Below, piece by piece: positions 3,001-51,124 of a DNA stretch of 64,000 nucleotides (positions are counted from its first letter, which is position 1; every line of letters starts with the position of its first letter). Origin of the DNA: an uncultured Armatimonadia bacterium. Lineage in GTDB: Bacteria > Armatimonadota > Zipacnadia > UBA1398. Both the position numbers and the translations under genes were made by a program. Below the pieces are notes generated by a model, which ran no database searches, had not been told where the DNA came from, and saw only the letters and a program-made list of their open reading frames with translations. The stretch is from assembly GCA_964598695.1 (NCBI GenBank), contig CAZRDB010000002.1:30857-94856 (forward strand), read 5' to 3'.

Positions 3001-3408
3001 GGCCTCCTCGCCTACCTCGCGGAGTACCTCGACGCGCACGCCGACTACTCGGTGGGCGACTTCTCGACCGACGGCGCGACGCTCCACCGGCTGGAGCCGG
3101 GCCGGGCCGACCGCGCCCACTACCGGATCCGCTTCACCGCGTGGCTCTCCCCGTACGATCTCGGCGTCTCGGAGGAGTGCGAGGTGCTCATCGTCGAGAC
3201 CGAGGAGCCCGGGGTGCTCGGCGCACGGGCCCGGATCTACCGCGTCAGCGGCGACTCCGGCGCCTGGATCCGCTGCACCCGCTCGTTCCTGAACCTCCTG
3301 CGGAGGCAGTTCCTGCTGTGGCGGACCTTCGTGCCGAGCGAGAAGGTCCGCTATCACCAGACCGGACAGGAGGTGGCGCTCCGTGGCGAATCGCGCTCGA
3401 CTGGGTGA
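1..3408 (+). CDS. Giant FtsX-domain ABC-transporter-permease-like membrane protein (5' partial; two 4-TM FtsX-type bundles separated by large periplasmic domains, C-terminal cytoplasmic domain)
   Basis: Frame 1 is open from nt 1 to the listed M at 253 (FNEDARFKFSDFGTACRDYGWLIADRL...), so the gene starts upstream of the window. The C-terminal bundle carries an FtsX-like signature ...LIPILIAALIVLNTMLGSVYERVKEIGIYSSLGLSPAHVGFLFLAEAS..., preceded by a MacB-like periplasmic stretch. A second hydrophobic bundle lies around GVIFYLALLLPFSFL...VIFRHF. Codon usage shows strong GC3 bias. Confidence 0.6.
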   Translation, partial: FNEDARFKFSDFGTACRDYGWLIADRLRLRKDDTLLDCINTGTTRSWATYLPGGPCLEAECATLAGYAGASFVSTGDLRRATDTVGDTVERMDLANLERQMRVLAAAVPNLLCEKLPDSDIGMFGADPEDGFALVHGGVFEFGKSISFFPQDPVPGAIACWGRVAKTSCGVRRQIMDRVDDEGHYELVGLPLRTRNWGANTELTAFQVDERTGEVVYAPDLGAQGAKRLNFNDFGIETNDTTKDVVVFQARQVSIIDTIDPGNLGILSDVRVLDRATKAPPFKWGMIRPSWMDSRLPGDPEPAVVVFGQPGAKLLLLLKPGFAAPRTLLLNATPDDPLGLGIDVDEEPVVANLAYRGARDVWTLDEARIEGFKRFGIGDRRAQRLHELAAGTLQEAEQAKADGVISRYVALSRRALAVENRVYPLVEKTARDVVHGVIFYLALLLPFSFLTERLLLAGRTIGKQAVGTIGVFAVVFTLLALVHPAFRITTTPLIVLLAFVLMVLAALVATVIFRHFDQQMAEWRHQSIGQHDADVARLSSASAAFALGVGNMRRRVTRTGLTCITLVLLTFTVISFTSVRTEQKVRRLGMDYPAAREGILIRQPTYGGFSEYTYSVLRNEVGGDFPIVPRSWTLSEGSALKSAIPIRYRGRSYEAGALLGLSPDEGQVSGLPTTLAGGGSRWFTDDPKDLMTCILPTTIAESLGVDAGEIGTAEVEVRGVALRVVGFYEGSAADDVLDLDGEMMTPIDEVEQNNLRRQGQLGPPTAAAQDQATTTRTTPHISATQVVLVPHAMNLRLGGALRSIAANPGGSEEARKAQADLVERLDIGVFAGSSGRVEFCSAVGGKSLQGLEGTLIPILIAALIVLNTMLGSVYERVKEIGIYSSLGLSPAHVGFLFLAEASVYAVLGAIVGYLIGQGVAWSSMAFGWGAALVELNYSSLAAVGTTVLVMAVVYLSTLYPARKAADLAVAGVERKWRLPDPEDDVLTVDLPFTMQEDESLGLLAYLAEYLDAHADYSVGDFSTDGATLHRLEPGRADRAHYRIRFTAWLSPYDLGVSEECEVLIVETEEPGVLGARARIYRVSGDSGAWIRCTRSFLNLLRRQFLLWRTFVPSEKVRYHQTGQEVALRGESRSTG

Positions 3409-5365: not shown

Positions 5366-7357
5366 ATGGTGGAGGAGCACGGACAACTGGTGGAGGCTGG
5401 CGAGGCGTCGGCGATGCCGCGCGCGCGGCTGACGCTGCGCGCGCTTGTGCTCGGCCTGGCGCTCTCCATCTTCAACTGCTACTGGGTGGCGGTGATGGAG
5501 GTCCGGTGGTACGTCCTCGACGGGACGTGCCTACCGCTGTTCGTCACGCCGATCTTCGCACTGCTGCTGCTGGCGTTCGTCAACCGCGGCTTGAGCCGGA
5601 TCCTGCCGCGGCTCGCCCTCCGACCGGCCGAGCTGCTCGTCGTCTACGTGATGATGGTCGTCTCGTGCGCGATGTGCGGCCACGACACCATCGCCAATCT
5701 GATCGGCACCGTCGGTCACCTCACCCAGCACACCACGCACGAGAACCAGTGGGGCACGCTGTTCGGCGGCCTCTTCCCCGACTGGATGTGGGTCGACGAC
5801 AAGCGCGCCCTGCTGCGCTTCTACGAGGGCGGCAAGCGGATGCCGTTCTTCGACTTCTTCGCCCCCGGCGTGGTGATGCCGTGGATGCCGAGCCTCGGCA
5901 TCTGGCTCGGCTTCTTCGCGATCGCCTGCTTCACGATGCTCGCCCTAGCCGTCGTGCTCCGCCGGTCGTGGATCGAGCATGAGCGCCTGAGCTTCCCGAT
6001 CGTCCAGCTCCCGCTCGCGGTCACCCGGCCGGCGCTCGAGAACGTCCTCGGCAACCGCGCGTTCTGGATCGGCTTCGCCATCGCGGCGTTCATCAGCCTC
6101 ATCAACGGCCTCTCGGTGCTCAACCCGCAGTGGCCCAAGTTCACGCGCGTGAAGCTCACGTACCTCAACACCTTCTTCACGACCCCGCCCTTCAACGCCG
6201 TCGACGCCCGGCTCGGGGCCTACCCGTTCGGGGTCGGGCTCGCCTACTTCCTGCCCACCGATCTGAGCTTCTCGTGCTGGTTCTTCTTCGTCGCTCGCAT
6301 GTTCCAGCAGGTCTGGCGCGCCAGCAGCGGGTGGATCAAGGCCGACTACTTCGGCGAGCAGTCGATGGGCGCGTGGCTCGTGATGGTCGCTCTCCTGCTG
6401 TGGGCGGGGCGCAAGCAGCTCCGCGGCCTCTCGCGGCGTGCCCTGGAGCAGGAGGCGATCCGAGAACCCCGCGAAGCGCTCCGACGCCGGCTCGCGATGG
6501 GCGTCGTCATCGCCGGCACCGCGCTGATGATCGGCTACGCCCACTTCGCCGGGCTCCGGTTGTCGTTCTCGATCCTGTTCTTCGTGCTCTACTTCGGCCT
6601 CGCCATCGCGATCACGCGCGTCCGGGCCGAGATGGGAGCGCCGCACGAGATCTACTTCGTCCAGCCGCGCGACCTGATCGTCACCCTCTTCGGCACGAGC
6701 TTCTTCACCAACGGGATGGGGCCGTTCCGCGGCGGCCACCAGAAGGACCTCGCGATCATGTGCTCCTTCTTCTGGCTCACCCGCGGCAACCGCAACCACC
6801 CGATGCCCAATTACCTCGAGGCGTTCAAGATCGCCCAGTCGGTCAACCTCCCCGTGGGCTCGATGACCTTCGTGCTGGTCCTCGGCACGATCGTCTCGAT
6901 CCTCGCCGCCACCTCGGCCAACCTGCACATCCCGTACCTCTACGGCGGCGTCTCGAAGATGAAGGGCTTCAAGACCTGGGTGGGCGCCGAGACCTTCCAG
7001 CGCCTCCAGGACTGGCTCGTCAACCCCCGCGCGCCGGACTCCGGCGGCCTCAAGGCCCTGCTGTTCGGCGGCGTCGTCGCGAGCCTGCTCTCGATGCTGC
7101 GCACCCGCTTCGTCGGCTTCCCGTTCCACCCCGCCGGCTACGCGCTCGCCACGAGCTTCGCGCTCGACTACTTCTGGTTCAGCTTCCTGGTCGGGTGGCT
7201 CGCCAAGGCCAGCATCCTCCGCTGGGGCGGGCAGAAGACCCACCGTGGCGCCGCGCCGTTCTTCCTCGGCCTGGTCGCCGGCGACTACTTCCTGGGTGCG
7301 TTCTGGTCCCTGTACGGGATGTTCAAGGACGTCCAGGTGTACCAGATGTACATCTAG
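5366..7357 (+). CDS. Uncharacterised polytopic inner-membrane protein, paralog B of 3383..5344
   Basis: Same length class (663 vs 653 aa) and the same architecture as paralog A, with a related motif RLSFPIVQLPLAVTRPALE. ATG at 5366 lies 22 nt after the previous stop; an alternative in-frame ATG at 5414 (MPRARLTL...) is possible. Confidence 0.55.
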   Translation: MVEEHGQLVEAGEASAMPRARLTLRALVLGLALSIFNCYWVAVMEVRWYVLDGTCLPLFVTPIFALLLLAFVNRGLSRILPRLALRPAELLVVYVMMVVSCAMCGHDTIANLIGTVGHLTQHTTHENQWGTLFGGLFPDWMWVDDKRALLRFYEGGKRMPFFDFFAPGVVMPWMPSLGIWLGFFAIACFTMLALAVVLRRSWIEHERLSFPIVQLPLAVTRPALENVLGNRAFWIGFAIAAFISLINGLSVLNPQWPKFTRVKLTYLNTFFTTPPFNAVDARLGAYPFGVGLAYFLPTDLSFSCWFFFVARMFQQVWRASSGWIKADYFGEQSMGAWLVMVALLLWAGRKQLRGLSRRALEQEAIREPREALRRRLAMGVVIAGTALMIGYAHFAGLRLSFSILFFVLYFGLAIAITRVRAEMGAPHEIYFVQPRDLIVTLFGTSFFTNGMGPFRGGHQKDLAIMCSFFWLTRGNRNHPMPNYLEAFKIAQSVNLPVGSMTFVLVLGTIVSILAATSANLHIPYLYGGVSKMKGFKTWVGAETFQRLQDWLVNPRAPDSGGLKALLFGGVVASLLSMLRTRFVGFPFHPAGYALATSFALDYFWFSFLVGWLAKASILRWGGQKTHRGAAPFFLGLVAGDYFLGAFWSLYGMFKDVQVYQMYI

Positions 7358-7392
7358 CGCCCGTCCGACCGGCGCCCCAAGGAGGTCACCCC

Positions 7393-10197
7393 ATGCGCTC
7401 CCTCGCGCCGTCGCTCGCGGCCGTCGCGCTGCTGCTCTCCGCCGCCTCGGCCGCTGCCGAGGCCGACGATGCGACCGTCGCCTTGATGGCCGTGGGCGGC
7501 TTCGGCGACGTCGGTCGTCTGGAGCCCGACCGAGCCGTGCTGTCGGCGAACAACACGCTCGGCGCCTCACTCCGGATCGTCTGGGAGGACCGCCCGGCCC
7601 CGCCCGCCTGGTGGAGCATCCGCATCGGCCTCCCGCGCGGCGCGAGCGACTACGACGCGCTCGAGTTCGATCTTCGCGTCGAGGAGACCGACGACCAGGC
7701 CCAGCTCTCCGTCTTCCTCGCCGAGTCGGACGACGATCGCTGGGTCTGCTACGGCGCGCGCCTCGCCGAGCTGCCCCGGGGCGAGTGGCTGCATGTGGTC
7801 GTCCCGCGCGATGCAATGGGGCCCTGGCTGATCGGCAACGGCGTGGCCGATTGGGACGCCCTCCGTGTCCTCGCCATCGAGCCGGGCGGGGGCAAGGCGA
7901 CCTTCCACCTCGACGGCCTCGCGCTCAGCCGAGCCGACGACGGCGCCCGACGGGCCATCCTCGACGGCGACGACGACGGCTACGAGCCGCTCGGACCGGC
8001 CGTCGCCCCTCAGCCCGAGCCCTCCGCGGGCCGCTGTTACTTCCCGTTCGACGGCGGCCGGCTCAGCGTCGAGGCCTACCTCCGCACGCCGGGGCGGCTC
8101 GGCGAGATCGTCGGCGCCGTCGGCACCCCGATCGCCGGCTACACCGCGAGCCTGCCCCGGGAGCGCGCCTCGTTGGCGGCAGAGGGGATCCCCTCGATCT
8201 ACTACTCCTCGTTCTCCTCGGGCTACGCGAAGTACCTGACGCGCCGTCAGGCCTGGGACGTCTGCGCCGACGGCCGCTCCCTCAACTTCGTGCACCCCAT
8301 GCAGACCACGTGGGACGGCCAGCACACGATCTCCTACGCCCATCCGGCCGTGACCGAGGCCCTGAGCCACAAGGCCGACGCCCTGCTCGCGGCCGGGCTC
8401 GGGACCTGGATGGTCGTCGACTACACCTTCCCGTGGTTCGATGGCTGGTGGGGCTACTCCGACGCGATGCGGGAGGCCTACCGAGCCGACCTCGCCGGCG
8501 CCGACGAGGGCCTCTTCCTGCGCGGGCGGGCGGAGCCGCTCCGCTTCGCCGAGTACTTCCGCTCCTACAACGGCTTCGCGCCCACCCCCGCCGACCTCGG
8601 CCTCTCGGCCTGGAGCGAGTTCGAGCCGCCGCGCTCGGACGAGCCCGACAGCCCGCGCCAGCGCGCCCGGGTCGCGACCTGGTTCACCCTCCGCTCCTAC
8701 GAGTGGCTCAAGCTGCCCGACCGCGTCGGGCGCCGGATGCGGGACGGCGGCGGCAATCCGCTGTGGATCGTCCCCAACCCCGAGGACTCCTACGGCTCGA
8801 GCGACTACGCCTACCTCGTGCGCAGCCAGGGGGTCGGCAACCTCTTCCCCGAGTGGTTCGGCTGCATCGGCTGGGCCGCCGAGGCTGGCTACGCCAGCCT
8901 GCCGCCGCTCCGCGAGACGGCCGATGAGGGTGGCTGCCGCCTGTCGATCATCCAGGAGACCGGCGCCGGCGGCCATGCCGCGCCCTACCTCGACTGGCGG
9001 GCGGCCTACTGCGGCGTCTACGCGCTCGCGGCTGCGGGCCGGCTCGACGACTTCGACAACGACTTCCTCGACCAGCAGCCCTTCGCGTCGATGAGCGATC
9101 CGGCCCAGGGCGCCGACGAGTTCGCCCGCTTCCGCGACGGCGTGGCGAAGGCCCTGGCCTTCCGTCAGGCTCGGGCGGAGACCGCCCGACGGCCCGCGAC
9201 CGACGTCCTGTGCGTCGCCGGCCGCCCGCCGGCCTACGGCGCCGGGAGCATCTACTTCGGGCTCGACCAGCCTCACTCGCTCGCGCCCGGCCTGTCGCGC
9301 GCCCACGTGCGGTTCGACTTGCGCGACAGCCTCGATCTCGAGCGGGTGCTCGACCGGTACCGGGTGGTCTTCTACAGCCCGCGCGCGCCGCGCAGGGGCG
9401 ACCTCGCCCGGCTGCGGGCGTGGCTCGAGGGCGGCGAGGGGAGGGTGCTCGTGACCCACAGCTTCGTCCCGACGCGCGATGCCGCGGAGTGGTGGCACTT
9501 CGACGGCGGGCCGGGGCTCGGTGGCGGGGACGGCCGCCTCCTCGGCCTCGGGTCGATCGGGCCGGCAGCCGGTGTCAGCGCGACGGTCACCGAGGCCACT
9601 GATCCCTGGGCCGCCGCGCTCCCGGTGGGCGCCACGCTTCGGGCGCGCGCTCCGCTGACGACCTGTGCCGAGGGCCGCGCGTTGATCGCGGGCGAGGCCG
9701 GCGCCCTGCTCACCGAGGCGCGAGTGGGCCGGGGCCGCGTGCTGTACCTCCACTGGTCCCCCGGCAGCCTCGATGGAGACGTGGAGTCGGATCTGTGGAC
9801 CGCCGCCGCCACGGAGCTGGGCCTGCCCGTGACCGGCTCGACGGATGCCGAATGCCCGGTGCAGGTGTTCGACGTGCCCGGCGGCCGCTCCGTGCTGGCG
9901 TGGGACGCCCCCGCGATGCGCGCCTGGAGCTTCGAGTACCGCCCCGGGATCGCGCCACTCGCCTTCGCCGCGCCCGACTCCGACCACACTGTAGCCCTGC
10001 CGGAGGCCGGCGCGGGGGCCGTCGTCTACGACTTCTGGCGCGATGAGATGGCCACCGGACCCGCGCTGCGGCTCGAGGGCGACCTCGCCGGCCTGTGGTA
10101 CGTGGGGCCGGACACGCCGGAGTTCCGCGCGACGCTCGAGGCCGCCCGTGCGCTACGGGCGAAGCTGCGCGATCTGGGGTTCGACGCGGCGCCGTGA
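7393..10197 (+). CDS. Secreted 934-aa protein with an N-terminal signal peptide (MRSLAPSLAAVALLLSAASAAAEA); possible carbohydrate-active or binding protein, family unknown
   Basis: ATG at 7393 is residue 422 of the 6130..10197 ORF, with ggagg 7 nt upstream. A classic Sec signal peptide is present. The upstream 421 codons of the track ORF overlap gene 5366..7357 in another frame and are Arg/Pro-rich GC artefact. Confidence 0.55.
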   Translation: MRSLAPSLAAVALLLSAASAAAEADDATVALMAVGGFGDVGRLEPDRAVLSANNTLGASLRIVWEDRPAPPAWWSIRIGLPRGASDYDALEFDLRVEETDDQAQLSVFLAESDDDRWVCYGARLAELPRGEWLHVVVPRDAMGPWLIGNGVADWDALRVLAIEPGGGKATFHLDGLALSRADDGARRAILDGDDDGYEPLGPAVAPQPEPSAGRCYFPFDGGRLSVEAYLRTPGRLGEIVGAVGTPIAGYTASLPRERASLAAEGIPSIYYSSFSSGYAKYLTRRQAWDVCADGRSLNFVHPMQTTWDGQHTISYAHPAVTEALSHKADALLAAGLGTWMVVDYTFPWFDGWWGYSDAMREAYRADLAGADEGLFLRGRAEPLRFAEYFRSYNGFAPTPADLGLSAWSEFEPPRSDEPDSPRQRARVATWFTLRSYEWLKLPDRVGRRMRDGGGNPLWIVPNPEDSYGSSDYAYLVRSQGVGNLFPEWFGCIGWAAEAGYASLPPLRETADEGGCRLSIIQETGAGGHAAPYLDWRAAYCGVYALAAAGRLDDFDNDFLDQQPFASMSDPAQGADEFARFRDGVAKALAFRQARAETARRPATDVLCVAGRPPAYGAGSIYFGLDQPHSLAPGLSRAHVRFDLRDSLDLERVLDRYRVVFYSPRAPRRGDLARLRAWLEGGEGRVLVTHSFVPTRDAAEWWHFDGGPGLGGGDGRLLGLGSIGPAAGVSATVTEATDPWAAALPVGATLRARAPLTTCAEGRALIAGEAGALLTEARVGRGRVLYLHWSPGSLDGDVESDLWTAAATELGLPVTGSTDAECPVQVFDVPGGRSVLAWDAPAMRAWSFEYRPGIAPLAFAAPDSDHTVALPEAGAGAVVYDFWRDEMATGPALRLEGDLAGLWYVGPDTPEFRATLEAARALRAKLRDLGFDAAP

Positions 10198-10204
10198 GTA
10201 CGTC

Positions 10205-11458
10205 CTACCCCTTCGGGTTCGTCACCCGCCCGAGGAACAGCACGAGTCCGGTCTTCGTGTCGCGGATGAGATACAGGAACGGGTGGTCGGCGAGGAAGCT
10301 CGCCTTGCACTTGCTGGCGGGCACCGGCCCGGCGGTCCCCGCGGACGCCTCGATCCCTCGCTCGTTCACCTTCAGCCATGTCGCGTGGTGGACATCGTCG
10401 ACCCAGAGCCCGCCACTCCCCGTCATGCCGCTCAGGTCGGCCGCGTCGAACGCGAGCGGCATCCCCATCGCCGACAGCACAGGCTTCAGCCTCGCGCTCG
10501 CTTCGAGCTCCCAGCGCGGGAGAGCCACCTCGACGAAGCAGGTCTCGGTCGGCGCGCCGGCAAGGGCGACGGCGTCCTCCCATGCGCCGCTCGCGAGGGG
10601 GATCGCGCCCTCTTGCGGCAGCAGGATCGCCATCTCCACGGTGGTCTGCCGGCAGGGAAGGTGCAGGACCTGGCACGGTACGCCCCCCACGGTCCCCTCC
10701 GCGTACTCCATGTGATCGTTGCGGTGCATCATCTGGGCCGTCACCGTGCGTCGCGGTGTGTGGAACGGACCGGGGCGCGTCAGCGCGAGGTTGAACTCGG
10801 TCTCCCACGGGGCGAGCAGGTACAGCGCGTTCGCGAGCACCAGTTGGGTGTTCCTGTCGGTCGCTCCCCGAGGCAGCAGCTCGGGGATGTGCCCGCCCGT
10901 GCGCTCGGAGACCCAGCGGTTGACCTCGGCCTGCCCGGGCTTCGGGTATGTGGTCTGGTGGATCGACCCGCCGAAGTCGCGCTCGATCGCCGCGCGGTAG
11001 TCTGCGAGCGGCGTGCAACCTTCGCCGAGCCACAGGCTGTTGGCGGGGCGCAGTGTGGCGCGGGCCGTGTTCGCCCGCAGGTCGAGGTCGAGCCGGTTGA
11101 GCGCCGGCCCGAGGCGGTCGTCGGGGAGGCCGAAGCCGCAGACGGTCCGGATCTGCTCGCGCGTCTCGCCTCGCGCCCCAAGGCAGACCATCCCGAGCGT
11201 CACCCCGAGGCTGTAGGGGGAGATGCAGAGGTTGTCCTCGTTGCCCTTCGCGAGTTCGGCCGCGAGCCGCAGGCCGAAGAGCGCGTTGCCCTCCGCGAGC
11301 TTGGCGGTCTCCTCCGGCGAGGCCTCGGGGTTCTGGTCGCGAGCCGCGGCGAGCGGCTCCGCGGGCACAGCGCGCTCGGGGCGCTCGCTCCGGCAGCCCG
11401 TGAGACCGAGGGCGACGACCAACCCCACTCCCAGAGCCACCGCGCGCCATCCCGCCAT
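10205..11458 (-). CDS. Serpin (serine protease inhibitor) family lipoprotein
   Basis: C-terminal serpin signature FLADHPFLYLIRDTKTGLVLFLGRVTNP. The hinge/RCL reads NERGIEASAGTAGPVPASKCK, with the GIEASAGTA hinge intact. The N-terminus MAGWRAVALGVGLVVALGLTGC carries a lipobox LTGC. Confidence 0.85.
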   Translation of the reverse strand: MAGWRAVALGVGLVVALGLTGCRSERPERAVPAEPLAAARDQNPEASPEETAKLAEGNALFGLRLAAELAKGNEDNLCISPYSLGVTLGMVCLGARGETREQIRTVCGFGLPDDRLGPALNRLDLDLRANTARATLRPANSLWLGEGCTPLADYRAAIERDFGGSIHQTTYPKPGQAEVNRWVSERTGGHIPELLPRGATDRNTQLVLANALYLLAPWETEFNLALTRPGPFHTPRRTVTAQMMHRNDHMEYAEGTVGGVPCQVLHLPCRQTTVEMAILLPQEGAIPLASGAWEDAVALAGAPTETCFVEVALPRWELEASARLKPVLSAMGMPLAFDAADLSGMTGSGGLWVDDVHHATWLKVNERGIEASAGTAGPVPASKCKASFLADHPFLYLIRDTKTGLVLFLGRVTNPKG

Positions 11459-11513
11459 GGAGCCCCATCCCCTCCGCCGTGCCCGCGCCGATCCAGGTCT
11501 GCACTCCTTAGTT

Positions 11514-11533
11514 GGCCCCGCGCCCCCGGGGCC
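11514..11533 (-). terminator. Candidate stem-loop (7-bp GC stem, 6-nt loop) between the DUF1559 gene and the serpin gene
   Basis: ggccccg cgcccc cggggcc lies about 90 nt downstream of the stop of 11624..12388 (minus strand). There is no U-tract, so this is weak. Confidence 0.25.
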
Positions 11534-11623
11534 GGACGCGAGGTTCGGTCCCGTACAGCGCTACGCCCGGGAGTCCTCGCGGGAGACCCGGGCGTTACGC
11601 GGCGGCGGAGTGGTTGGCAGGAG

Positions 11624-12388
11624 CTACCGATCGGGGTAGGGGATCGCCCCGTCGACGTGCGGCGGAGTGCCGTCCCACTCGATGCACCAGGGCGGCACGG
11701 CGTCGACCGCGCTGCTGGCGGCCTTGCCGAACGTCGCCACCTGCTTGAGCGGCAGGGGCTTGGCGTGGCCGTCGACGAAGGTGACATTGGTCATGCCGTT
11801 GTGGCGATTGCAGCCGGCCTTGCCCGAGTCCCAGTCCAGCCCGAGCGTGTTCATCAGGACCGCCCAGGTGTCGTCGCCCCAGGTCGCGCCGCCCACGTAG
11901 CCGTCGAGGATCGCGAACGTCTCCGCCGGGTAGCGGATCTCCGACACCAGGCACCGCGCGTCCCCGTTGTTGAGCCCGTAGCACAGGCCGTCGTAGTTGA
12001 CGATGTAGTTGCCGTAGTACACCCCGTCCGGGGGGAGGCCCGCCACGAGGTCGGAGTAGGCGCTGCCGACCTTCACCGGGCTCGTGGGGCACGCGAAGAT
12101 CTGGTTGTTCCTCACGTACGGGTACAGGAGCTGGCACCAGTTGGTGCCCCAGTTGAACGCCCAGGTGTCGTCGCCCGACCAGTAGGCCGGCGGGAACTTC
12201 TCGTCATAGTCCTGGGTGTACTGGTTGAGCGCCGTCCCGAGCTGGCGCAGGTTGCTCAGGCAGCTCGTCTGGCGCCCCTTCTCGCGAACCTTCGCGAACA
12301 CGGGGAACAGGATGGCCGCGAGGATCGCGATGATCGCGATCACGACCAGGAGTTCGATCAGGGTGAAGCCTCTGTGCCTTCGAAGCAT
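11624..12388 (-). CDS. DUF1559 / H-X9-DG protein with prepilin-type N-terminal cleavage-methylation domain (type II secretion pseudopilin-like)
   Basis: N-terminus [45 protein letters not shown] is the canonical PulG-like segment. C-terminus has the H-X9-DG motif [23 protein letters not shown] at 12388 with gggagg upstream. Confidence 0.85.
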
Positions 12389-12417
12389 GGTGTTCCTCCC
12401 GCCGTCGTGGGCATGCG

Positions 12418-12642
12418 CTAGGGAGCGCCGCTGCCGGCCTCGTTCGTCGCGCCGCCCTCGTAGGTCGCCGCTCCCTCGCGCGCGGCGGGAGGAGCGGAGC
12501 GCTCCGCCTGGGTCGCGGCGCGGGTGACCTGCTCCGTCTCGCCCGGGGGCTCCAGGGCGGGAGGCTTGCGACAGCCGGCGAGCAGGGCGGCGGCGAGGAG
12601 GGCGAGCAGGGCCGTGCGGCGGATGATCTGTTGTCTCAGCAT
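12418..12642 (-). CDS. Small lipoprotein (74 aa), function unknown
   Basis: [24 protein letters not shown] contains lipobox LAGC. AAGGAG lies upstream of the ATG at 12642. The gene sits between the two DUF1559 genes; the longer 12418..13593 track ORF overlaps the upstream gene and is rejected. Confidence 0.45.
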
Positions 12643-12671
12643 GGGATCTCCTTGGTCCGGTCGAGGCGGGC

Positions 12672-13463
12672 CTACATACCCGCGACGTACTTGGCGTACT
12701 TGGCCTTCCAGCCGGTGTCGTAGCTGTTGACGACGTACCAGTTCCACGGGGGCTTGTAGGCCGAGGCCAAGGCCGTCGCCTGGTCCATGCCGCAGAAGAA
12801 GCTGAAGCCCTGCGCCTTGGCGTGGCCGTCCCAGTAGCCCACGTTCGCCAGGCCGTTGTGGCGCAGGGCGCCCTCGCCGCGGGCGTCCCAGTCGAGGTCG
12901 AGGTCCTCGAGCGGTGGGTACTCGTTGCTGCCCTCGTTGAAGTAGGCGTCGCCCGCGTCGCAGAGGAAGACCACCTCGGCCGGGCTGTCGGTGAGCGTCA
13001 TCATGCAGTTCGCGACCGGCCGGTTGGCCATCGCGTCCCAGTTGATGCCGTAGTTGCCGTCGGTGCCCATGGTGTAGGTGCCGGTGGCCTCGTTGTACGA
13101 GCCGTAGGTGATCCCCGGATCGGGGCTCGACGGGCAGTCGAAGAGGTCGGCGCTCTTGACGTACGGGCCGACGTAGGCCGGGAACTCCACCCACGGGCGG
13201 AGCGACCGGCAGGGCGTCCCGAACGGGTTCATCATGGGGTTGTTGCCGGAGGTGGCCGCATTGGGGAAGGTCTCGTCGTAGTCCTGCGCGTACGCCAGTT
13301 CCGCGGTCATGATCTGGCGGACGTTCGACAAGCAACTGGTCTGGCGCGCCTTCTCCCGTGCCCTGCCGAAGACGGGGAACAGGACCGCGGCCAGGATGCA
13401 GATGATCGCGATGACGACGAGTAGCTCGATGAGCGTGAAGCCGGAGCGCGTGCGTGCGGGCAT
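12672..13463 (-). CDS. DUF1559 / H-X9-DG protein with prepilin-type N-terminal domain (second copy)
   Basis: [51 protein letters not shown] is the PulG-like N-terminus. H-X9-DG motif [20 protein letters not shown]. The start is residue 416 of the 678-aa track ORF, top coordinate 13463 (cat confirmed in sequence). Confidence 0.85.
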
Positions 13464-13718
13464 GGTGCTGGAACTCCCTTCGAGCGTGCGGGGGGAGACG
13501 GCCGCGACCGACGGAAGCAGCCGAGGAGACCCGGGCGATCGGGGGGCCCTCCCGATCTCGCCACGCCCCCCTGTATACGGCCCGTGCGGCCAAGAGCGCG
13601 CTAAGCGCGCCTTAAGCGCCCATGAAGGAGCGCGGCGCGTCGAGGTTGCCTCCGGCCGGGCGCGCGAGTACCCTGTCCTCGATTCGCTCGTACATGCCCA
13701 GGGAAGAGGTGCCCGGCT

Positions 13719-14474
13719 ATGGCTCACAGGATCGCTCGCTCCGTGGGGATCGTCCTTCTCTTCGCCGCGCTGCTCGCGCTCTGCGCGTGGGCCGTCGCCG
13801 CCCAGACGCAGGAGAAGCCCGACCGTCCCGACCCGATCGGCCCCTCGCCCACGCTGGGCTTGGCGCCGCCACCCGGCGCCTGGGCGCCGACCGACATGAC
13901 CGCATGGCACCGTCGCGACGGGGGGCCGGGGATCTGGAGGGTCGAGGATGGCGTGATGACGGCCGGCGGCGGCGACATTCTCAGCAACGAGCACTTCGAG
14001 GACGCCTACATCCACGTCGAGTTCCGCGAGCCCGACATGCCCGACGCCTCCGGCCAGGGCAAGGGCAACAGCGGCGTGGGGGTCCAGGGCCGGTACGAGG
14101 TGCAGGTGCTCGACAGCTACGGCCTCGCGCGTCCCGGTAAGGGCGACTGCGGCGCCGTGTACGACCAGTTCGCGGCCCTGCTGAACGCCTCGCGCCCCCC
14201 CGAGGAGTGGCAGACCTACGACATCGTGTTCCGCTCGGCGCGCCGCGACGCGCAGGGGCAGCTCGCGGAGAAGGCGCGGTTGACGGTTCTCCACAACGGG
14301 TATGTCATCCAGAACAACGTGGAGGTCCTGGGGCCGACCAACATCGCGCTCGATGCCGACGAGGGCACCCCTGGGCCGCTCCTGCTCCAGGATCACGGCT
14401 GCCCGGTGCAGTACCGCAACGTCTGGATCCTGCACCTGCCGGCCACCGCCAACGACCAGTACGCGGGCCAGTGA
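13719..14474 (+). CDS. DUF1080 (3-keto-disaccharide hydrolase-like / LamG-fold) secreted protein
   Basis: Signal peptide [29 protein letters not shown]. Conserved DUF1080 blocks [20 protein letters not shown] and [18 protein letters not shown]. Confidence 0.8.
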
Positions 14475-14635
14475 GGCGCCGGCGGCCTCTGAGCACCGAC
14501 CCACGGGGCAGGAGACGCCGACCGAGGCGGAGAAGCCCCTTGGCGTTCGGATGCGAGGGCTCGATCGGGCATACTCCCCATTGGGCGCGTGGTGTCGGGG
14601 TGGGAGTAGCCCGTTTGGCAGGAGGCGTCCTGGCA

Positions 14636-15004
14636 ATGCCGATCTTCTTTGCCATGGACAACGCGCAGTTGCGACTGGAGGAGGGGACGCTCCCGTCGGT
14701 CGGTGCATTGTCGCTCGATACCGAGGGTCTGACCTTCACGACCGGCGGGTTCGTCCACGGCGATATCCGCGTGCCGTACGAGAACATCGCCTCGATCGGG
14801 CGGCTGTACCGTTCGAAGGACACGATCCAGGTCACCACCGTGACCGGCGAGCGGTACCTGATCAGCGTCTACCAGGAGGGCACAGCCGACGGCGTCCGCG
14901 CGATCCTCCGCCTGCTGCAGGCCCGCGCCATCCACCAACGCCAAACCAAGCCGCCGTCCGACCCGGAGGATCCCGAGGCCGGCCCCGACGCGTCTTCCTC
15001 GTAG
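14636..15004 (+). CDS. Hypothetical protein (122 aa), possibly PH-like fold, acidic C-terminus
   Basis: ATG at 14636 is residue 144 of the 14207..15004 ORF, with ggaggcg about 10 nt upstream. GC3-biased codons. Sits immediately upstream of nuoA. Confidence 0.4.
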
Positions 15005-15070
15005 GGCCGCGCGCACGCGGAGGAGTTGCCCGCCCACGCGGCGAAGCTCCCCTGCCGGGAGAGAGCTTCG

Positions 15071-15469
15071 ATGCAGTTCCACCCGTACGCGCAGATCCTG
15101 ATCCTCGCCGTCGGCGGCATTGTCTTCATCGGTGGCGCGCTCGTCTTCGGTTGGCTGGTTCGGCCCCGCAAGCCGGCGGAGCCGAAGGAGACGACCTACG
15201 AGTGCGGCGAGTTGCCGATCGGGAGCGCCTGGTTCCAGTTCCCAGCCCAGTTCTACCTGATCGCCCTCCTCTTCGTCGTCTTCGAGGTCGAGGCGGTCTA
15301 CCTGTTGCCCTGGGCGCTCAAGCTGAGCAGCTTCCTCCACAACCCGGAGGGCGAGCTGGTTGGCTCGGCTTGGTTCGCAATCGTCGAGATGGGCATCTTC
15401 CTCTTCGTCCTGCTGCTCGGATGGGTCTACGCACTGCGGAAGGGAGCGCTCGAGTGGATCACCGAGTAG
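15071..15469 (+). CDS. nuoA: NADH-quinone oxidoreductase subunit A
   Basis: [30 protein letters not shown]...[41 protein letters not shown] is typical NuoA/ND3. RBS gggagagag upstream. Confidence 0.9.
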
Positions 15470-16056
15470 CGCTCCCGGGCTGCGAGGGCGATGGCCCCCC
15501 CGGGTCGGGCCGGATCGCCACTCCCGACGGCCTCGCCCCCTCGCCCGAGCTGGACGGACTCCGCTCGTCGGTCCTGGGCTCGCTCCCGGGCGCGGGTCGC
15601 GCGATCGACCTCGTCGACCGCTGGGTGTTCGCGCAGGCGCGGCTGCGCTCGCTGTGGCCCCTGTCGTTCGGCCTGGCCTGCTGCGCCATTGAGATGATGG
15701 CCGCGTTCGCCTCCCGCTTCGATATGGACCGCTTCGGCGTCTTCCCCCGCGCCACGCCGCGGCAGGCCGACGTGATGATCGTCGCGGGGACCGTGACCTA
15801 CAAGATGGCCGAGCGGCTTCGCCGGCTGTACGACCAGATGCCCGAGCCCAAGTACGTCATCGCCATGGGGAGCTGCGCCAACTGCGGCGGGCCGTTCCTG
15901 GACGGCTACCACGTCGTGCGCGGCGTCGATCTCATCGTGCCGGTCGACATCTACGTTCCCGGTTGCCCCCCGCGGCCCGAGGCCCTGATCGACGGCTTCT
16001 ACCGCCTGCGCGAGAAGATCGCGCGCGCCGAGGGCGCCGTCTCGCCCGTGAGGTAG
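15421..16056 (+). CDS. nuoB: NADH-quinone oxidoreductase subunit B (N2 cluster subunit)
   Basis: [18 protein letters not shown]...[10 protein letters not shown]...VPGCPPRPE are the NuoB Cys motifs. The only in-frame ATG is at 15421, giving a 49-nt overlap with nuoA and about 76 residues before LWP. An internal GTG/CTG start cannot be excluded. Confidence 0.75.
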
Positions 16057-16058
16057 CA

Positions 16059-16625
16059 GTGACACACGCGGAAGCGGCACAACGGATCCTGGAGGACCTC
16101 GCGGCGACTGGCGCCGAGGTCGAGCCCTGCGCCGAGTGGGTCGAGGTGCGCTGTGCCGCCCCTGCGCTCGCCGAGGTGGTACGCGGCCTGCGCGACGGCC
16201 GAGTGGGGTTCGACTACTTCACCTTCGTCACGGCCGTCGACTACCCGCCCGGCACGGAGCAGGGCGGCGCGCACGGACGCTTCGAGCTGTTCTACCACCT
16301 CCGGTCGCTCGGCAACGCCTGCGCCGCCGTCGTGCGAACCTGGCTCGAGCGCGACCGGGAGTCGATCCGCACCGTGAGCGACCTGTACGCCGGGGCGAAC
16401 TGGCATGAGCGCGAGTGTTACGACCTGTTCGGCGTGGTCTTCGCCGGCCACCCCGACCTGACGCGGATCCTGCTCCCCGACGACTGGCAGGGACATCCGC
16501 TCCGCAAGGACTACGTGGAACGCAACGAGCTGCCGTGGACCGTCTCGCAGCAGTGGCCGGCGATCGAGCCCGACCGCACGCCCGAGGCACCGCCCGCGAA
16601 GAAGCCGGCGAAGGAGAGCACCTGA
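16059..16625 (+). CDS. nuoC: NADH-quinone oxidoreductase subunit C
   Basis: GTG at 16059 lies 2 nt after the nuoB stop, with gtgagg upstream. Protein reads [15 protein letters not shown]...YHLRSL...[31 protein letters not shown]. Confidence 0.85.
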
Positions 16626-16626
16626 G

Positions 16627-17748
16627 GTGGAGAGCGTACCTCCCGTGCGCGAGGCGCACTACGAGGAGATGCTCATCAACATGGGGCCCCAGCACCCGTC
16701 GACCCACGGGGTGCTGCGGGTGCTCCTGCGCCTCCGGGGCGAGGTCATCGAGGACGCGCAGTTCGTCATCGGCTACCTCCACCGCAACCACGAGCGGATC
16801 TCGGAGCAGAAGGGCTGGATCCGCGCCCTCCCGCTCACCGACCGCGTCGACTACCTCTCGCCGATCACCTGCGAGTGGGCGATGGCGCTCGCCGCTGAGA
16901 AGCTCGCCGGCGTGGAGGTGCCCGAGCGCGCCGAGTGGCTCCGCGTCCTCTCCGCCGAGCTGTACCGCATCGCGAGCCACCTCGTCTTCATCGGCACCTT
17001 CGGCAACGACATCGGCGCGACGACGCTGTTCCTCTACGGCTTCCGCGAGCGCGAGCGGATCATGGACATCTTCGAGCGGCTCACCGGCCAGCGGATGACC
17101 TGCCACTACATCCGCGTCGGCGGCGTCGGCTGGGATCTCCCGGCCGGGCTCGACCGCGAGATCCTCGAGACCCTGCGCGTGATCGAGGAGCGCCTGCCGG
17201 AGTACAACGACCTCTTCACCAACAACCGCATCTTCCGCGCCCGGAGCGAGGGCGTGGGCGTCCTCACCGCCGAGCAGGCGAAGGCGTTCGGCGTGAGCGG
17301 GCCGAACCTGCGTGCCTCGGGTATCGACTTCGACTTGCGGCGCGACGTGCCGTACGGGGTCTACCCCAAGCTCTCGTTCGAAGTCCCCACCCGCCCGAAC
17401 GGCGACACCTTCGACCGGTACGCGCTGCGCGTGCTGGAGATCCCCCAGTCGGCCCGGCTCGTGCGGCAGGCGCTCGAGGGACTGCCGGCCGGGGAGATCC
17501 GCGCGAAGCTCAAGGCTCGGTTCCAGACCCCGGCGGGGGTCGCCTACGGGGCCGTCGAGGGCGCGCGGGGTGAGATCGGCTACTTCGCGGTGGGCGACGG
17601 GACCGAGGCGCCCTACCGGCTCAAGATCCGCTCGCCCTCGTTCTCGAGCCTCGCCTCGATCGAGAAGACGTTCATCGGATGGAAGGTCGCCGACGCGATC
17701 GCCATCCTCGGTGGGATCGACATCGTGCTCGGAGACGTAGACCGCTAG
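16627..17748 (+). CDS. nuoD: NADH-quinone oxidoreductase subunit D (49 kDa)
   Basis: MLINMGPQHPSTHGVLRVLLRLRGEVIED...; GTG start at 16627, 1 nt after the nuoC stop. Confidence 0.9.
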   Translation: MESVPPVREAHYEEMLINMGPQHPSTHGVLRVLLRLRGEVIEDAQFVIGYLHRNHERISEQKGWIRALPLTDRVDYLSPITCEWAMALAAEKLAGVEVPERAEWLRVLSAELYRIASHLVFIGTFGNDIGATTLFLYGFRERERIMDIFERLTGQRMTCHYIRVGGVGWDLPAGLDREILETLRVIEERLPEYNDLFTNNRIFRARSEGVGVLTAEQAKAFGVSGPNLRASGIDFDLRRDVPYGVYPKLSFEVPTRPNGDTFDRYALRVLEIPQSARLVRQALEGLPAGEIRAKLKARFQTPAGVAYGAVEGARGEIGYFAVGDGTEAPYRLKIRSPSFSSLASIEKTFIGWKVADAIAILGGIDIVLGDVDR

Positions 17749-17749
17749 C

Positions 17750-18871
17750 GTGTGGGATGGAGTCGGCATGGAGTCCGGCCGCGGCTGGATCGAGAACGGG
17801 ATCCACAACCTGGTCGCCCCCCTCTGGGAGCGGGTGCCGATCCTGCCTCTCTTCGTGCCGGTGGTCTGTATCCTCGCCGTGGTCGCGGTCTCGGCGCTCA
17901 TCCTGATCTGGCTCGAGCGGAAGGTCTCGGCCGACATCCAGTCCCGCGTCGGCCCGATCCACCATGGCCCCTTCGGCCTCCTGCAGACCGTCTGCGACGC
18001 GCTCAAGCTCATCCAGAAAGAGGACACCGTCCCGAAAGCGGCCGACCGGATCGTCTTCTGCGTCGCGCCCTTCATCGCGTTCGTCCCGGCGGTGCTGCTG
18101 TACTGCGTGATCCCCTTCGGCAAGGGCTGGATCGCCGCCGACCTCAACGTCGGCCTCTTCTACCTGCTCGCCGCCGGCTCGGTCGGCGTGGTCGGCGTGA
18201 TCGTCGCCGGCTGGGCGAGCAACAACAAGTGGTCGTTGCTCGGCGGGATGCGCGCCGCCGCACAGCTCATCACCTACGAGATCCCGGGCTTCCTCGCCCT
18301 CGTCGCCATCGTGATGATCTCCGGCACGCTGTCGATGAACGAGATCGTCCGCGGTCAGACCCGGATCGAGTGGTCGAGCTGGCCGCCGACCGCCCCCTTC
18401 ATGGGCTGGTACTGCTTCACCGTGCCGGGCGCGATCGCCGCGATCCTCTACCTCGTCGCGGCGCTCGCCGAGGTCAACCGCCAGCCCTTCGACCTCCCCG
18501 AGGCCGAGTCGGAGCTGGTCTCGGGCTTCAACACCGAGTACTCCGGCTTCCGCTTCGCGATCTTCTTCCTCGGCGAGTTCAGCAACCTGCTGGTCGTCTC
18601 CGCTGTCGCGACCACCCTGTTCTTCGGCGGGTGGGCCTCACCGCTCGGCGACCAGTTCGCCGGCGCGTTCGGCCTGCTCGGCGATGGCGTCCAGTGGTTC
18701 TTCGTCAAGGTCACGGTCCTGATCTACGGCATGATGTGGATCAAGTGGACCCTCCCCCGCGTCCGCATCGACCAGATGCTGCAGATCGCCTGGAAGGGCA
18801 TGATCCCCCTCGCGCTGATCAACATCGCGATTGCCACCGCGTGGGTTGCCCTGGTGGGGGGGAGCGGATGA
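17750..18871 (+). CDS. nuoH: NADH-quinone oxidoreductase subunit H
   Basis: ...LIWLERKVSADIQSRVGPIHHGPFGLLQTVCDALKLIQKED... is typical NuoH/ND1. It follows nuoD directly, with no nuoEFG between. GTG at 17750, or ATG at 17768. Confidence 0.9.
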   Translation: MWDGVGMESGRGWIENGIHNLVAPLWERVPILPLFVPVVCILAVVAVSALILIWLERKVSADIQSRVGPIHHGPFGLLQTVCDALKLIQKEDTVPKAADRIVFCVAPFIAFVPAVLLYCVIPFGKGWIAADLNVGLFYLLAAGSVGVVGVIVAGWASNNKWSLLGGMRAAAQLITYEIPGFLALVAIVMISGTLSMNEIVRGQTRIEWSSWPPTAPFMGWYCFTVPGAIAAILYLVAALAEVNRQPFDLPEAESELVSGFNTEYSGFRFAIFFLGEFSNLLVVSAVATTLFFGGWASPLGDQFAGAFGLLGDGVQWFFVKVTVLIYGMMWIKWTLPRVRIDQMLQIAWKGMIPLALINIAIATAWVALVGGSG

Positions 18872-19428
18872 GCCACCGCCCCCCGATCGAGATCCCGCCC
18901 GGCCAGGCGCTCTCGCCCAACGGCATCGTCGCCTTCTTCCAGCTTGTCGGCGCCGGGCTGTGGACCGCCGCGAAGGGCCTGCGCGTGACGGCGTACAACG
19001 GCCTCCGCCGGCCCCGAATCACCGTGGCCTATCCCTTCAAGACGCTCGACGTCGCGCCCCGCTGGCGGGGCCGCCACCGGATCCTGCGCACCGACGACGG
19101 CGCGCCCGCCTGCATCGCCTGCGGCGCGTGTGAGCGGATCTGCCCCGACCGCTGCATCGCGATTACCCGCACGAAGGTCACGGTCACCCAGCCGGACGGG
19201 ACCGAGAAGCAGGTGAGCCGGCCGGAGTCGTTCGTGATCGACCTCGCGCGCTGCATGTACTGCAACCTGTGCGCCGAGGTCTGCCCGGTGGACTGCCTGC
19301 ACCTGACGGCCGATTACGCCTACTCGTGCGGCGATGTCCGGACCATGAAGGTCGATCTGGAGGGCCTCCTGCGCGCCGAGCCGCTCTCGGAACACGAGCT
19401 GCGCCGCGACGCGGAGCCGGAGGCGTGA
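18868..19428 (+). CDS. nuoI: NADH-quinone oxidoreductase subunit I (2x[4Fe-4S] ferredoxin)
   Basis: CIACGACERICP and CMYCNLCAEVCP motifs. ATG at 18868 overlaps the nuoH stop (ATGA). Confidence 0.9.
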   Translation: MSHRPPIEIPPGQALSPNGIVAFFQLVGAGLWTAAKGLRVTAYNGLRRPRITVAYPFKTLDVAPRWRGRHRILRTDDGAPACIACGACERICPDRCIAITRTKVTVTQPDGTEKQVSRPESFVIDLARCMYCNLCAEVCPVDCLHLTADYAYSCGDVRTMKVDLEGLLRAEPLSEHELRRDAEPEA

Positions 19429-19455
19429 GTCCTCGCACCTCGAGGGAGCTGTGAG

Positions 19456-20103
19456 TTGGAGTCGGTAGTCTTCTACAGCCTGGCGGCGACGATCCTCTGC
19501 CTCGCGCTGGTGGTCGTCACCACGACGCGCATCCTGCGCGGCGTCGTCGCGCTGTTCCTGGCGCTCGCCGGCGTCTCCGGCCTGTTCTTCCTCCTTCGCG
19601 CCCCGATCCTCGGCGCGATGCAGCTCATGGTCTACGCCGGCGGGATCGCCGTGCTGTTCGCCTTCGCCGTCATGCTCGTGCGGAGCGTCACCGGCGCCTT
19701 CGTGCGCCACTCGACCGGCTACGCGGCCCCGGGGGCGATGCTGGCGGCGGCCTTTGTGCTGCTGGTGGCCGTGATCTGGGCCGCGCAGATCGGCTGGGGC
19801 CTCGACGAGAGCGCCCAGGCGCCCTCGCCGCTCGCGACCGACCTCGCCGCGCGCGTCATCGACACCCCGACCCCGCCGGAGGTCGACCCGAAAGAGGGCT
19901 TCAGCCCGCTGCTGCTCCGGGAGTACCTGATCCCGTTCGAGCTGGCCTCGGTGCTGCTGCTCGTGGCCATGGTCGGCGCGGTTCTCATCGCCCACCCCCT
20001 CGGACGGAGCCACCCCGGCGAGAAGACCGACGCCGCGCGCGAGGGTACCGATGCGGTGGTCGCCGCCGAGACGGCCGGGGAGGGGGCGGGCCACGATGCC
20101 TGA
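19456..20103 (+). CDS. nuoJ: NADH-quinone oxidoreductase subunit J
   Basis: TTG start preceded by gagggag. Hydrophobic NuoJ/ND6-like sequence. Confidence 0.8.
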
Positions 20104-20428
20104 GCTGCTGTTCCCGCAGACGGTGCCGCTCGGCCACTACCTCGTCTTCTCGCTGCTGCTCTTCGCGATCGGCCTCTACGGCGTCGTCGCCCGACGCAAC
20201 GCGATCGCGATGCTGCTCTCGATCGAGCTGATGCTCAACGCGGTGGCCGTCAACTTCGCGGCCTTCTCGCGAAGCGGGATCGCCCAGGCAGGCGAGGGCC
20301 AGATCTTCGTGGTCTTCCTCGTGACGGTGGCCGTCGCCGAGGCGGCCGTCGGCCTGGCGATCATCGTGGCGCTGTTCCGGATCCGGCGGACCACCAACGC
20401 CGATGAGATCAACCTGCTGAGAGGCTAG
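20096..20428 (+). CDS. nuoK: NADH-quinone oxidoreductase subunit K
   Basis: [59 protein letters not shown] is typical NuoK/ND4L. ATG at 20096, with an 8-nt overlap with nuoJ. Confidence 0.85.
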
Positions 20429-20430
20429 CG

Positions 20431-22566: not shown

Positions 22567-22645
22567 GGGCGCAGCTTCGGCGCATGCGCCGGCAACGCGA
22601 GGGGATCCGGCGGGTCACCCCGGACCGGACGGGAGGGCGCGCCTG

Positions 22646-24184: not shown

Positions 24185-24205
24185 CCGGGAGAAGGGTCAA
24201 CGCGC

Positions 24206-27648: not shown

Positions 27649-27655
27649 GGCGGGG

Positions 27656-28555: not shown

Positions 28556-28563
28556 GTCACCCC

Positions 28564-31298: not shown

Positions 31299-31370
31299 GG
31301 ATCACCTCCCCCGTGGGGGCCGCCCGGGCGACGGCGCCTGGCCCCGCCCGGAGCGGCTGCTCACACTACT

Positions 31371-33630: not shown

Positions 33631-33680
33631 ATGTATAGTATGCATGATCGGTATGCATAGGCGGTGATCGCACAATGCAT
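33631..33680 (+). promoter_or_regulatory. AT-rich island with three ATGCAT palindromic hexamers (putative promoter/operator of the AbrB-like gene)
   Basis: About 80 bp of roughly 45% GC in a roughly 70% GC genome: ...atgtatagTATGCATgatcggTATGCATaggcggtgatcgcacaATGCATgac. The third hexamer contains the start codon and no Shine-Dalgarno is obvious. Confidence 0.45.
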
Positions 33681-33959
33681 GACAAAGCAGACCCCGAACC
33701 CGAGGGCGCGTGGAGCGACGAGAGCTACTGCGGCTTCGTGACGGTCGGTGAGCGGGGCCAGGTCGTTATCCCGGCCGCCCTGCGACGCGACTGCGCGATC
33801 AACCCGGGCGATCGCCTCCTCGCGGCCCGCGCCCCGGTCGGGGGAGGGGTCGTCTTCGCCAAGATGGAGGTCCTCCGCGATCTGCTCGCGCGCATGGGTC
33901 TGCCGACCGGACCGCCCGACCGCCCTGAGCGGCCCAAGGCCAAGGGAGGCGGGAAGTGA
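33675..33959 (+). CDS. AbrB/MazE/SpoVT-family (swapped-hairpin) DNA-binding protein
   Basis: GFVTVGERGQVVIPAALRRDCAINPGDRL matches the AbrB/MazE N-terminal domain pattern. 94 aa; the stop overlaps the TolC start (GTGA). Confidence 0.7.
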   Translation: MHDKADPEPEGAWSDESYCGFVTVGERGQVVIPAALRRDCAINPGDRLLAARAPVGGGVVFAKMEVLRDLLARMGLPTGPPDRPERPKAKGGGK

Positions 33960-51029: not shown

Positions 51030-51124
51030 GGCCGCGTTCGCTCCCGCCATGGTAACGGCGCGTGTGCGGGGCGGGATCGAAGGAGATCCATGCCGCGCGG
51101 AGGAAAGTGCATGCGGGTGCAACT

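Follow-up and report, generated by a model that had tools for sequence, protein, structure and literature searches.

Do two pilin-like genes, a small lipoprotein gene and a serpin gene, set one behind the other, form one functional system or are they neighbours by gene turnover? The question is raised by a stretch of 64,000 nucleotides (the window) of contig CAZRDB010000002.1, GenBank assembly GCA_964598695.1, from an uncultured Armatimonadia bacterium. The minus strand carries a DUF1559 gene (DUF1559 #1), a gene for a lipoprotein of 74 amino acids (aa), a second DUF1559 gene (DUF1559 #2), a gap of 165 bp and a serpin gene with a lipobox, an order confirmed by the open reading frame (ORF) list and by family scans (Table 1). 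From this order an earlier reading of the letters (the sequence-only reading) had proposed that the serpin controls a protease for the processing or turnover of the pilin-like proteins. Comparison with related loci points elsewhere. Very probably the four genes are two independently inherited envelope-protein units in a variable islet of a chromosome of the Armatimonadota (class Armatimonadia); their adjacency would be a product of gene turnover and the serpin a protective suicide-substrate inhibitor. The analysis removes a tempting, unsupported link between serpin and pilin-like proteins and has little reach beyond annotation.

Close relatives of the serpin in the databases are only six, with 43-50% identity, and none adjoins a DUF1559 gene. 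In the related loci L003, L004 and L005, nuoA, a 129-aa gene and a 3-keto-disaccharide hydrolase gene stand on one strand; the opposite strand carries three tandem serpin genes (452, 449, 456 aa), a gene with the Lcl_C domain (PF07603) and a sulfatase gene, with no DUF1559 gene. A partial gene beyond the L003 sulfatase, on the opposite strand, is the DUF6785 orthologue (tblastn). Identities between window and L003 (tblastn) are 81.5% for NuoA, 70% for the 121-aa protein of the window, 79% for the 3-keto hydrolase and 89% for DUF6785 (L003 9223-11073); for the window serpin against the three L003 serpins they are 48, 45 and 37%. At the DNA level (blastn), window positions 15700..13631 align with L003 at 74% and 7355..5504 at 86% identity, and between 13631 and 7355 only serpin-to-serpin matches of 64-80% are obtained. 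Because the L003 alignments end at 13631 and 7355, the islet is bounded at 7358..13630. This slot is occupied in L003 by the three serpin genes, the Lcl_C gene and the sulfatase gene, in the window by the DUF1559 cassette, one serpin gene and the gene of the orphan secreted protein p934. A Joint Genome Institute (JGI) contig carries the 3-keto hydrolase followed by two serpins, so that this hydrolase family adjoins serpins there as in L003-L005; no DUF1559 gene is present. In L006 a GH42-like gene precedes the serpin, in L007 a gene for an extracytoplasmic function (ECF) sigma factor and a 271-aa gene; both loci are free of DUF1559. More distant Armatimonadia (NuoD 74-76% identical) carry other genes again upstream of nuoA. 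Other neighbours in relatives had been set beforehand as the observation that would refute the proposed link of serpin and DUF1559 genes, and other neighbours are what the six closest serpins have.

A wider survey comprises 80 genome-derived serpin loci with 10-kb flanks, among the matches listed, and 80 metagenome-derived loci (0.58 Mb). The genome-derived scan extends over 1.3 Mb, also taking in the close-relative loci L001-L007, and the two surveys together over about 1.9 Mb. The prepilin signature was used as the search motif; it detects all controls in L088-L091. A prepilin-motif gene is present in one of these 160 further serpin loci (L027; 1 of 80 genome-derived, 0 of 80 metagenome-derived). 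Serpins from genome contigs are at most 39% identical to the window serpin, among the matches listed, and metagenome contigs hold no relative above 38% identity. The co-occurrence of serpin and DUF1559 in other genomes, which the sequence-only reading had left to be checked, thus amounts to no general association.

The islet would lie between the nuo operon with the 3-keto-disaccharide-hydrolase-like gene and the gene for the DUF6785 membrane protein. One of its two units would be the single lipoprotein serpin, the local member of a lineage-specific family with tandem arrays of 2-3 copies in relatives. Tandem lipoprotein serpins, two or three in number, stand at the nuo/3-keto locus of relatives (L003 2267-6398, L004, L005 and the JGI 3300075153 contig). 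The reactive-centre loops (RCLs) of the close relatives are highly divergent, with Glu, Thr, Ser and Ala as counted P1. Identities of 37-48% for the serpins against 70-89% for the flanks suggest rapid diversification of protease specificity, and divergent loops beside conserved flanks are the pattern expected from it. A fast-diverging lipoprotein serpin family would thus have occupied the nuo/3-keto locus and would be down to one copy in the window. The other unit would be the three-gene cassette of DUF1559, small lipoprotein and DUF1559, which may have landed in the islet or replaced part of it. Since serpins immediately adjoin the 3-keto gene in two related contigs, we infer by parsimony that the cassette arrived later.

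The cassette occurs away from serpins. Locus L088 carries a trio of 264 aa, a 74-aa lipoprotein and 268 aa, with internal spacers of 37 and 78 bp; glnB (P-II) and amt come next, 255 bp further on, and no serpin is present. The first L088 product is 55% identical to DUF1559 #1, and the best homologue of DUF1559 #2 is P0130, likewise in L088, with 56% identity. In the window the spacers within the cassette measure 29 bp and 29 bp, against 165 bp ahead of the serpin. The 74-aa lipoprotein of the window has a low-complexity tail after the LLAGC lipobox and no Pfam or NCBIfam match; the middle gene of L088 encodes the lipobox LLGC and a Gly-rich, acidic low-complexity tail. BLASTP detects no similarity between the two 74-aa lipoproteins, which correspond in position, length and lipobox only. 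Small lipoproteins (LVGC, FVGC) flank two pilin-like genes in L090 and L091, and three DUF1559 genes stand in tandem in L089.

Small lipoproteins of 58-92 aa adjoin DUF1559 genes repeatedly: in the window at 12418-12642, in L088 at 1441-1665, in L090 at 1248-1457 and 3163-3339, and in L091 at 2398-2676. Each has a lipobox and a Gly-rich, acidic or Pro-rich low-complexity tail; no sequence similarity is detected among them. The recurring cassette of DUF1559, small lipoprotein and DUF1559 gives a small handle on a huge family of unknown function.

Both DUF1559 proteins match PF07963 N_methyl (40.2 and 32.6 bits, cut-off 21.2), TIGR02532 (36.9 bits for #2 and 33 bits for #1, cut-off 16.3) and PF07596 (42.2 and 32.4 bits, cut-off 23.3), the last over profile positions 2-65 and 2-43 of 268 only. 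They are 41% identical to each other. The H-X9-DG motif is found in both by pattern search; no dedicated NCBIfam H-X9-DG model matches at E<=0.01, so that the H-X9-DG evidence is at motif level. DUF1559 homologues carry the JGI label 'prepilin-type processing-associated H-X9-DG protein', and the family has more than 8000 matches at E<1e-5. In an alignment of 29 DUF1559 sequences (A2), R195, H196, N201, D206, H208 and K210 are invariant. The profile of these 29 homologues aligns with solved structures over the first 60-70 residues only, namely type IV pilins of Geobacter, Thermus and Myxococcus and GspG. The model of DUF1559 #2 (predicted local distance difference test, pLDDT, 82) consists of an alpha1 helix (residues 10-60) and a head, for which Foldseek gives no significant match in the Protein Data Bank (PDB). 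The proteins are, by sequence, pilin-like in the N-terminal module.

Assignment as pseudopilins of a type II secretion system (T2SS) was rejected: the GspG equivalog TIGR01710 gives 37.7 and 33.6 bits against a cut-off of 88.85 and the PilA equivalog NF041775 gives 45.5 and 36.2 bits against 400, both confined to the N-terminal 55-60 residues. With type IV pilins and T2SS pseudopilins (PilA, GspG) the window proteins have the N-terminal class III signal and the alpha1 helix in common; they differ in scores under the equivalog cut-offs and in a head without PDB match. With the DUF1559 (PF07596) family of Planctomycetota, Verrucomicrobiota and Armatimonadota they share the class III signal G|FTLIELLVV, the segment REKARQxSCxSNLKQ and the C-terminal R-H-x4-N-x4-D-G-H-x-K. 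Against that family they are short forms (254, 263 aa) which cover the first 43-65 of 268 profile positions and are paired with a small lipoprotein. Prepilin peptidase would cut the products at Gly|Phe, and the long N-terminal helix would anchor them either in the inner membrane or in a structure akin to type IV filaments. No function of DUF1559 is given in the literature examined, in which nothing relevant to 'H-X9-DG' was found. In Planctopirus limnophila the family numbers 68 paralogues, of which two are essential (PMC10632474).

Table 1. Positions of the islet, its genes and sequence features, and the flanking genes kept in L003 (window coordinates).
Feature	Position	Strand	Characteristics
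DUF1559/prepilin-type H-X9-DG protein #1	12672..13463	-	263 aa; PF07963 + PF07596
74-aa lipoprotein, middle cassette gene	12418..12642	-	lipobox LLAGC, Cys24
DUF1559/prepilin-type H-X9-DG protein #2	11624..12388	-	254 aa; PF07963 + PF07596, TIGR02532
Spacer DUF1559 #2 / serpin, 165 bp	11459..11623	-	two G+C-rich hairpins
Serpin, 417 aa, predicted inhibitory-type lipoprotein	10205..11458	-	PF00079
Serpin signal peptide + lipobox, residues 1-22	11393..11458	-	L-T-G-C, Cys22
Serpin reactive-centre loop, residues 366-387	10298..10363	-	E366=P17, G368=P15, I369=P14, S382=P1, K383=P1', C384=P2'
Orphan secreted protein p934, 934 aa, signal peptide	7393..10197	+	convergent with serpin
3-keto-disaccharide hydrolase-like, 251 aa (flank kept in L003)	13719..14474	+	PF06439 E=1.3e-33; divergent from cassette
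DUF6785/DUF6784 membrane protein, 663 aa (flank kept in L003)	5366..7357	+	PF20581 + PF20580
Variable islet, ~6.3 kb	7358..13630	no strand	holds p934, serpin, DUF1559 cassette

Transcription of cassette and serpin from one promoter, as a loose operon with no biochemical interaction between the products, is a rival reading, in which the serpin was captured behind a cassette entering a former serpin-copy slot. Compatible with this are the common orientation of the four genes, the lack of a terminator motif, and the intergenic region between the 3-keto gene and the first cassette gene, which is partly kept in L003 ahead of the serpin array (alignment to 13631, 88 bp past the 3-keto start codon). 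A consensus promoter and terminator scan of 9800-14000 found none, a scan uninformative at 70% G+C. The 165-bp gap folds into two G+C-rich hairpins which were discarded as evidence of a terminator, the fold not being significant against shuffled sequence (z = -1.56). Against the loose operon stand the length of that gap, far above the 29-bp cassette gaps and with two G+C-rich hairpins, and the L088 cassette, also set apart from its next gene, by 255 bp. The loose operon is unlikely.

G+C content and third-position G+C content (GC3) are uniform between the cassette and its neighbours (0.89-0.97), with no compositional sign of recent transfer of the cassette. Mobile-element ends and target duplications are absent from 7000-14200, where the only repeat is a 141-nt N-terminal segment common to both DUF1559 genes. 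No Rfam family is found in the 64-kb window.

The serpin is full-length. It matches PF00079 with 269.8 bits (cut-off 27, E=5.6e-80) over profile positions 2-370 of 370. Solved structures closest in sequence (phmmer, PDB) are serpinB1, the best with E=3.7e-49, PAI-2 and conserpin, with E=1e-46 to 1e-49. The AlphaFold2 model (pLDDT 87, predicted template modelling score, pTM, 0.84) has the native serpin fold and aligns by Foldseek with native inhibitory serpins, miropin included, at template modelling (TM) scores of 0.77-0.89. In the model the loop 365-385 is unstructured and exposed; strands 356-364 and 386-389 bracket an exposed stretch, residues 372-382, of pLDDT <50. In an alignment of the window serpin and 26 homologues (A1, 27 sequences), S80, S83, W218, H358 and E366 are invariant; we take them to be the counterparts of the alpha1-antitrypsin shutter and breach residues S53, S56, W194, H334 and E342. 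The hinge is E366-R-G-I-E-A-S-A-G-T375, with GIEASAGTA at residues 368-376, and E366, G368, A371, A373 and T375 are invariant in the same alignment. P17 is Glu, P15 Gly and P13 Glu; P12-P9 (A371-S372-A373-G374) are small, with no Pro and no charge. The inhibitory hinge motif is quoted as ExGTEAAAA (PMC8233489). Counted over 17 residues from the invariant Glu366, P1 is Ser382, P1' Lys383 and P2' Cys384. From P17 to the conserved DHPF there are 26 residues, against 25-33 among homologues; most of the closest paralogues have a P' side longer by 4-5 residues. By sequence and model the serpin is of the canonical inhibitory type. The sequence-only reading had reported an inhibitory-type hinge free of Pro at P12-P9 and a P1-P1' at about Ser-Lys by counting, and both observations hold, in a loop of normal length.

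P14 is Ile369, where Thr or Ser is present in 26 of 26 other aligned homologues and in 61 of 61 other listed best-match hinges. Hydrophobic P14 is tolerated in some inhibitory serpins; in C1-inhibitor P14 is Val. A non-inhibitory serpin, of substrate type or otherwise repurposed, would be in keeping with this Ile, unique among 27 aligned and 62 listed hinges, and with the longer P'-side loops in most of the closest paralogues. It is distinctly unlikely: P15 Gly and P13 Glu are kept, P12-P9 hold small residues, neither Pro nor charged, and a hydrophobic side chain at P14 can become buried when the loop inserts. Shutter and breach positions are likewise conserved, and the loop as a whole has a length within the family range, the length from P17 to P1 being set by counting.

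The serpin N-terminus MAGWRAVALGVGLVVALGLTGC comprises a signal peptide and the lipobox L-T-G-C with Cys22; the peptide begins with MAGWR, followed by a hydrophobic stretch and L-T-G-C22. The lipobox was defined as [LVI][ASTVI][GAS]C after a signal peptide and is present in the serpin and in the 74-aa protein (L-A-G-C24). In the serpin model a helix at 4-18 is followed by residues of pLDDT ~55 to about residue 40 and by a low-confidence linker to about residue 47. The lipobox Cys is aligned with a lipobox in 5 of the 6 closest relatives by motif scan; the sixth, P0002, has W-G-C, outside the scan pattern. Export by Sec and lipidation on Cys22 would place the serpin on the membrane, held by a flexible linker of ~25-30 residues. 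About 50 of 85 bacterial-type serpin homologues have a lipobox-like motif within the first 45 residues (loose motif). Spence et al. 2021 (PMC8233489) divide prokaryotic serpins into intracellular, periplasmic and membrane-anchored ones and report N-terminal transport peptides in most of them. Membrane tethering in bacterial serpins is common, not novel. Of the membrane-tethered serpin described in the sequence-only reading the lipobox stands; with a lipobox in about half of the homologues and the class already described in PMC8233489, such tethering is not unusual.

On the membrane, the serpin would meet a serine or papain-like cysteine protease that cuts the loop near Ser382-Lys383; the cut loop would insert into beta-sheet A, and the protease would be trapped covalently. 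The likely role is a shield of envelope and secreted proteins against own or foreign proteases, and the serpin probably protects such proteins from proteolysis.

Under functional coupling the serpin would regulate a protease, at the surface or in the periplasm, responsible for processing or turnover of the DUF1559 proteins. In favour of such coupling are four products that are all envelope proteins, genes on one strand 165 bp apart with no clear terminator in the gap, and the position of the only two prepilin-motif genes of the window (pattern search) beside the serpin. The relatives speak against it: 0 of 6 closest serpins adjoin DUF1559, the orthologous cassette stands beside glnB-amt, and a prepilin-motif gene occurs in 1 of 160 other serpin loci. 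The targets of serpins are serine and some cysteine proteases. N-termini of the type G|F(T/S)LxE are processed by prepilin peptidase. This enzyme (PilD/GspO) is an aspartic protease of the membrane (PMC3584216) and so falls outside the serpin target range. Pfam peptidase families were not found among the ~40 ORFs of the window, nor were secretion or pilus assembly genes found in the window. With the pairing not conserved, the processing enzyme aspartic and no protease gene found in the window, the coupling put forward in the sequence-only reading is very unlikely. Very unlikely, too, is a capture in this one lineage, in which the serpin would be co-transcribed with the cassette and, tethered, would protect the pilin-like proteins or tune their turnover against a serine protease; if true, the captured serpin and the cassette would be a new envelope module.

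Several points count against two independent units and a protective inhibitor. All four genes are on one strand. Co-transcription of cassette and serpin by read-through is possible: neither a consensus promoter nor a terminator was found in the gap, whose hairpins do not significantly exceed shuffled sequence in stability. The Thr or Ser at P14 of inhibitory serpins is absent from the window serpin, and its inhibitory activity is a prediction. The serpin would be exported and probably lipid-anchored, its lipidation and localisation being deduced from sequence. The synteny argument leans on few lineages (six serpins of at least 43% identity).

The window serpin has its nearest known parallels in miropin of Tannerella forsythia, the siropins and the Bifidobacterium serpin (Spence groups T/U), which likewise have the full fold and an inhibitory hinge. 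Miropin-type bacterial serpins likewise have an N-terminal export signal, a proposed place at the surface or in the periplasm and a presumed role in protection against proteases (PMC4604654, PMC8233489); in PMC4604654, Ksiazek et al. are cited as proposing that miropin is cell-surface exposed. The miropin structure 5ncs and the window serpin model align at TM 0.78/0.86. Differences from the miropin type are the environmental Armatimonadia host, not host-associated, and P14 Ile. Solved serpins aligned by Foldseek are only 24-31% identical to the window serpin. The best solved matches are human clade B serpins (serpinB1/leukocyte elastase inhibitor, PAI-2), with E=3.7e-49 by sequence and E=9e-36 by Foldseek, which fits the 'hub' similarity of prokaryotic serpins with clade B serpins (PMC8233489). 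Clade B serpins lack a signal peptide and stay inside the cell; the window serpin differs from them by its signal peptide, lipobox and linker and by an RCL of unrelated sequence. Among the matches listed, serpin homologues occur in Chloroflexota, Planctomycetota, Acidobacteriota, Latescibacterota, Patescibacteria and archaea.

Convergent with the serpin is the gene of the orphan protein p934; the two stop codons are separated by 7 bp. Neither Pfam nor the PDB (by sequence) gives a match for p934, and none of the relative loci compared has a counterpart; with all three comparisons blank it was set aside as a candidate protease. A cryptic protease in p934 is possible.

The affiliation with Planctomycetota-Verrucomicrobiota-Chlamydiota (PVC) assumed in the sequence-only reading gives way, most likely, to Armatimonadota, to which the NuoD and DUF1559 matches point. 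The best named NuoD match is an Armatimonadia bacterium, with 74% identity against ~50-56% for other phyla; named DUF1559 matches are from Armatimonadetes, Abditibacteriota, Capsulimonadales and WS1.

The nuo operon occupies 15026-25666 (+) and comprises nuoA, B, C, D, H, I, J, K, L, M and N, nuoH starting 2 bp after nuoD. nuoE, F and G are absent, an order shared by L092-L094, so that an 11-subunit complex-I-like enzyme without the NADH-oxidising module is predicted. Conservation near the islet is highest in the DUF6785/DUF6784 gene (5366-7357), which encodes a polytopic membrane protein 89% identical to its L003 orthologue. An Opp/Dpp-type peptide ABC transporter is encoded at 25694-31301 (-), ~14 kb from the serpin, by two ATPases with oligo_HPY, at least one permease and SBP_bac_5; it indicates peptide uptake, and no protease gene is seen nearby. 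At 33648-37167 (+) a MazE-like small ORF is followed by genes for a TolC-like outer-membrane efflux protein (OEP) and a HlyD-family adaptor; the TolC-like OEP and HlyD genes indicate, by sequence, a diderm envelope. A tyrosine recombinase (Phage_int_SAM_1 + Phage_integrase, XerC/D-like) is encoded at 50130-51122 (-), far from the islet.

In L007 the 271-aa protein between the ECF sigma factor and the serpin P0007 is a possible anti-sigma factor. The distant serpin matches P0028, P0046 and P0068 are fusions of a sigma-70 region and a serpin domain, of ~690 aa. Gene order and domain fusions are a hint that serpins and ECF signalling may be linked in some bacteria.

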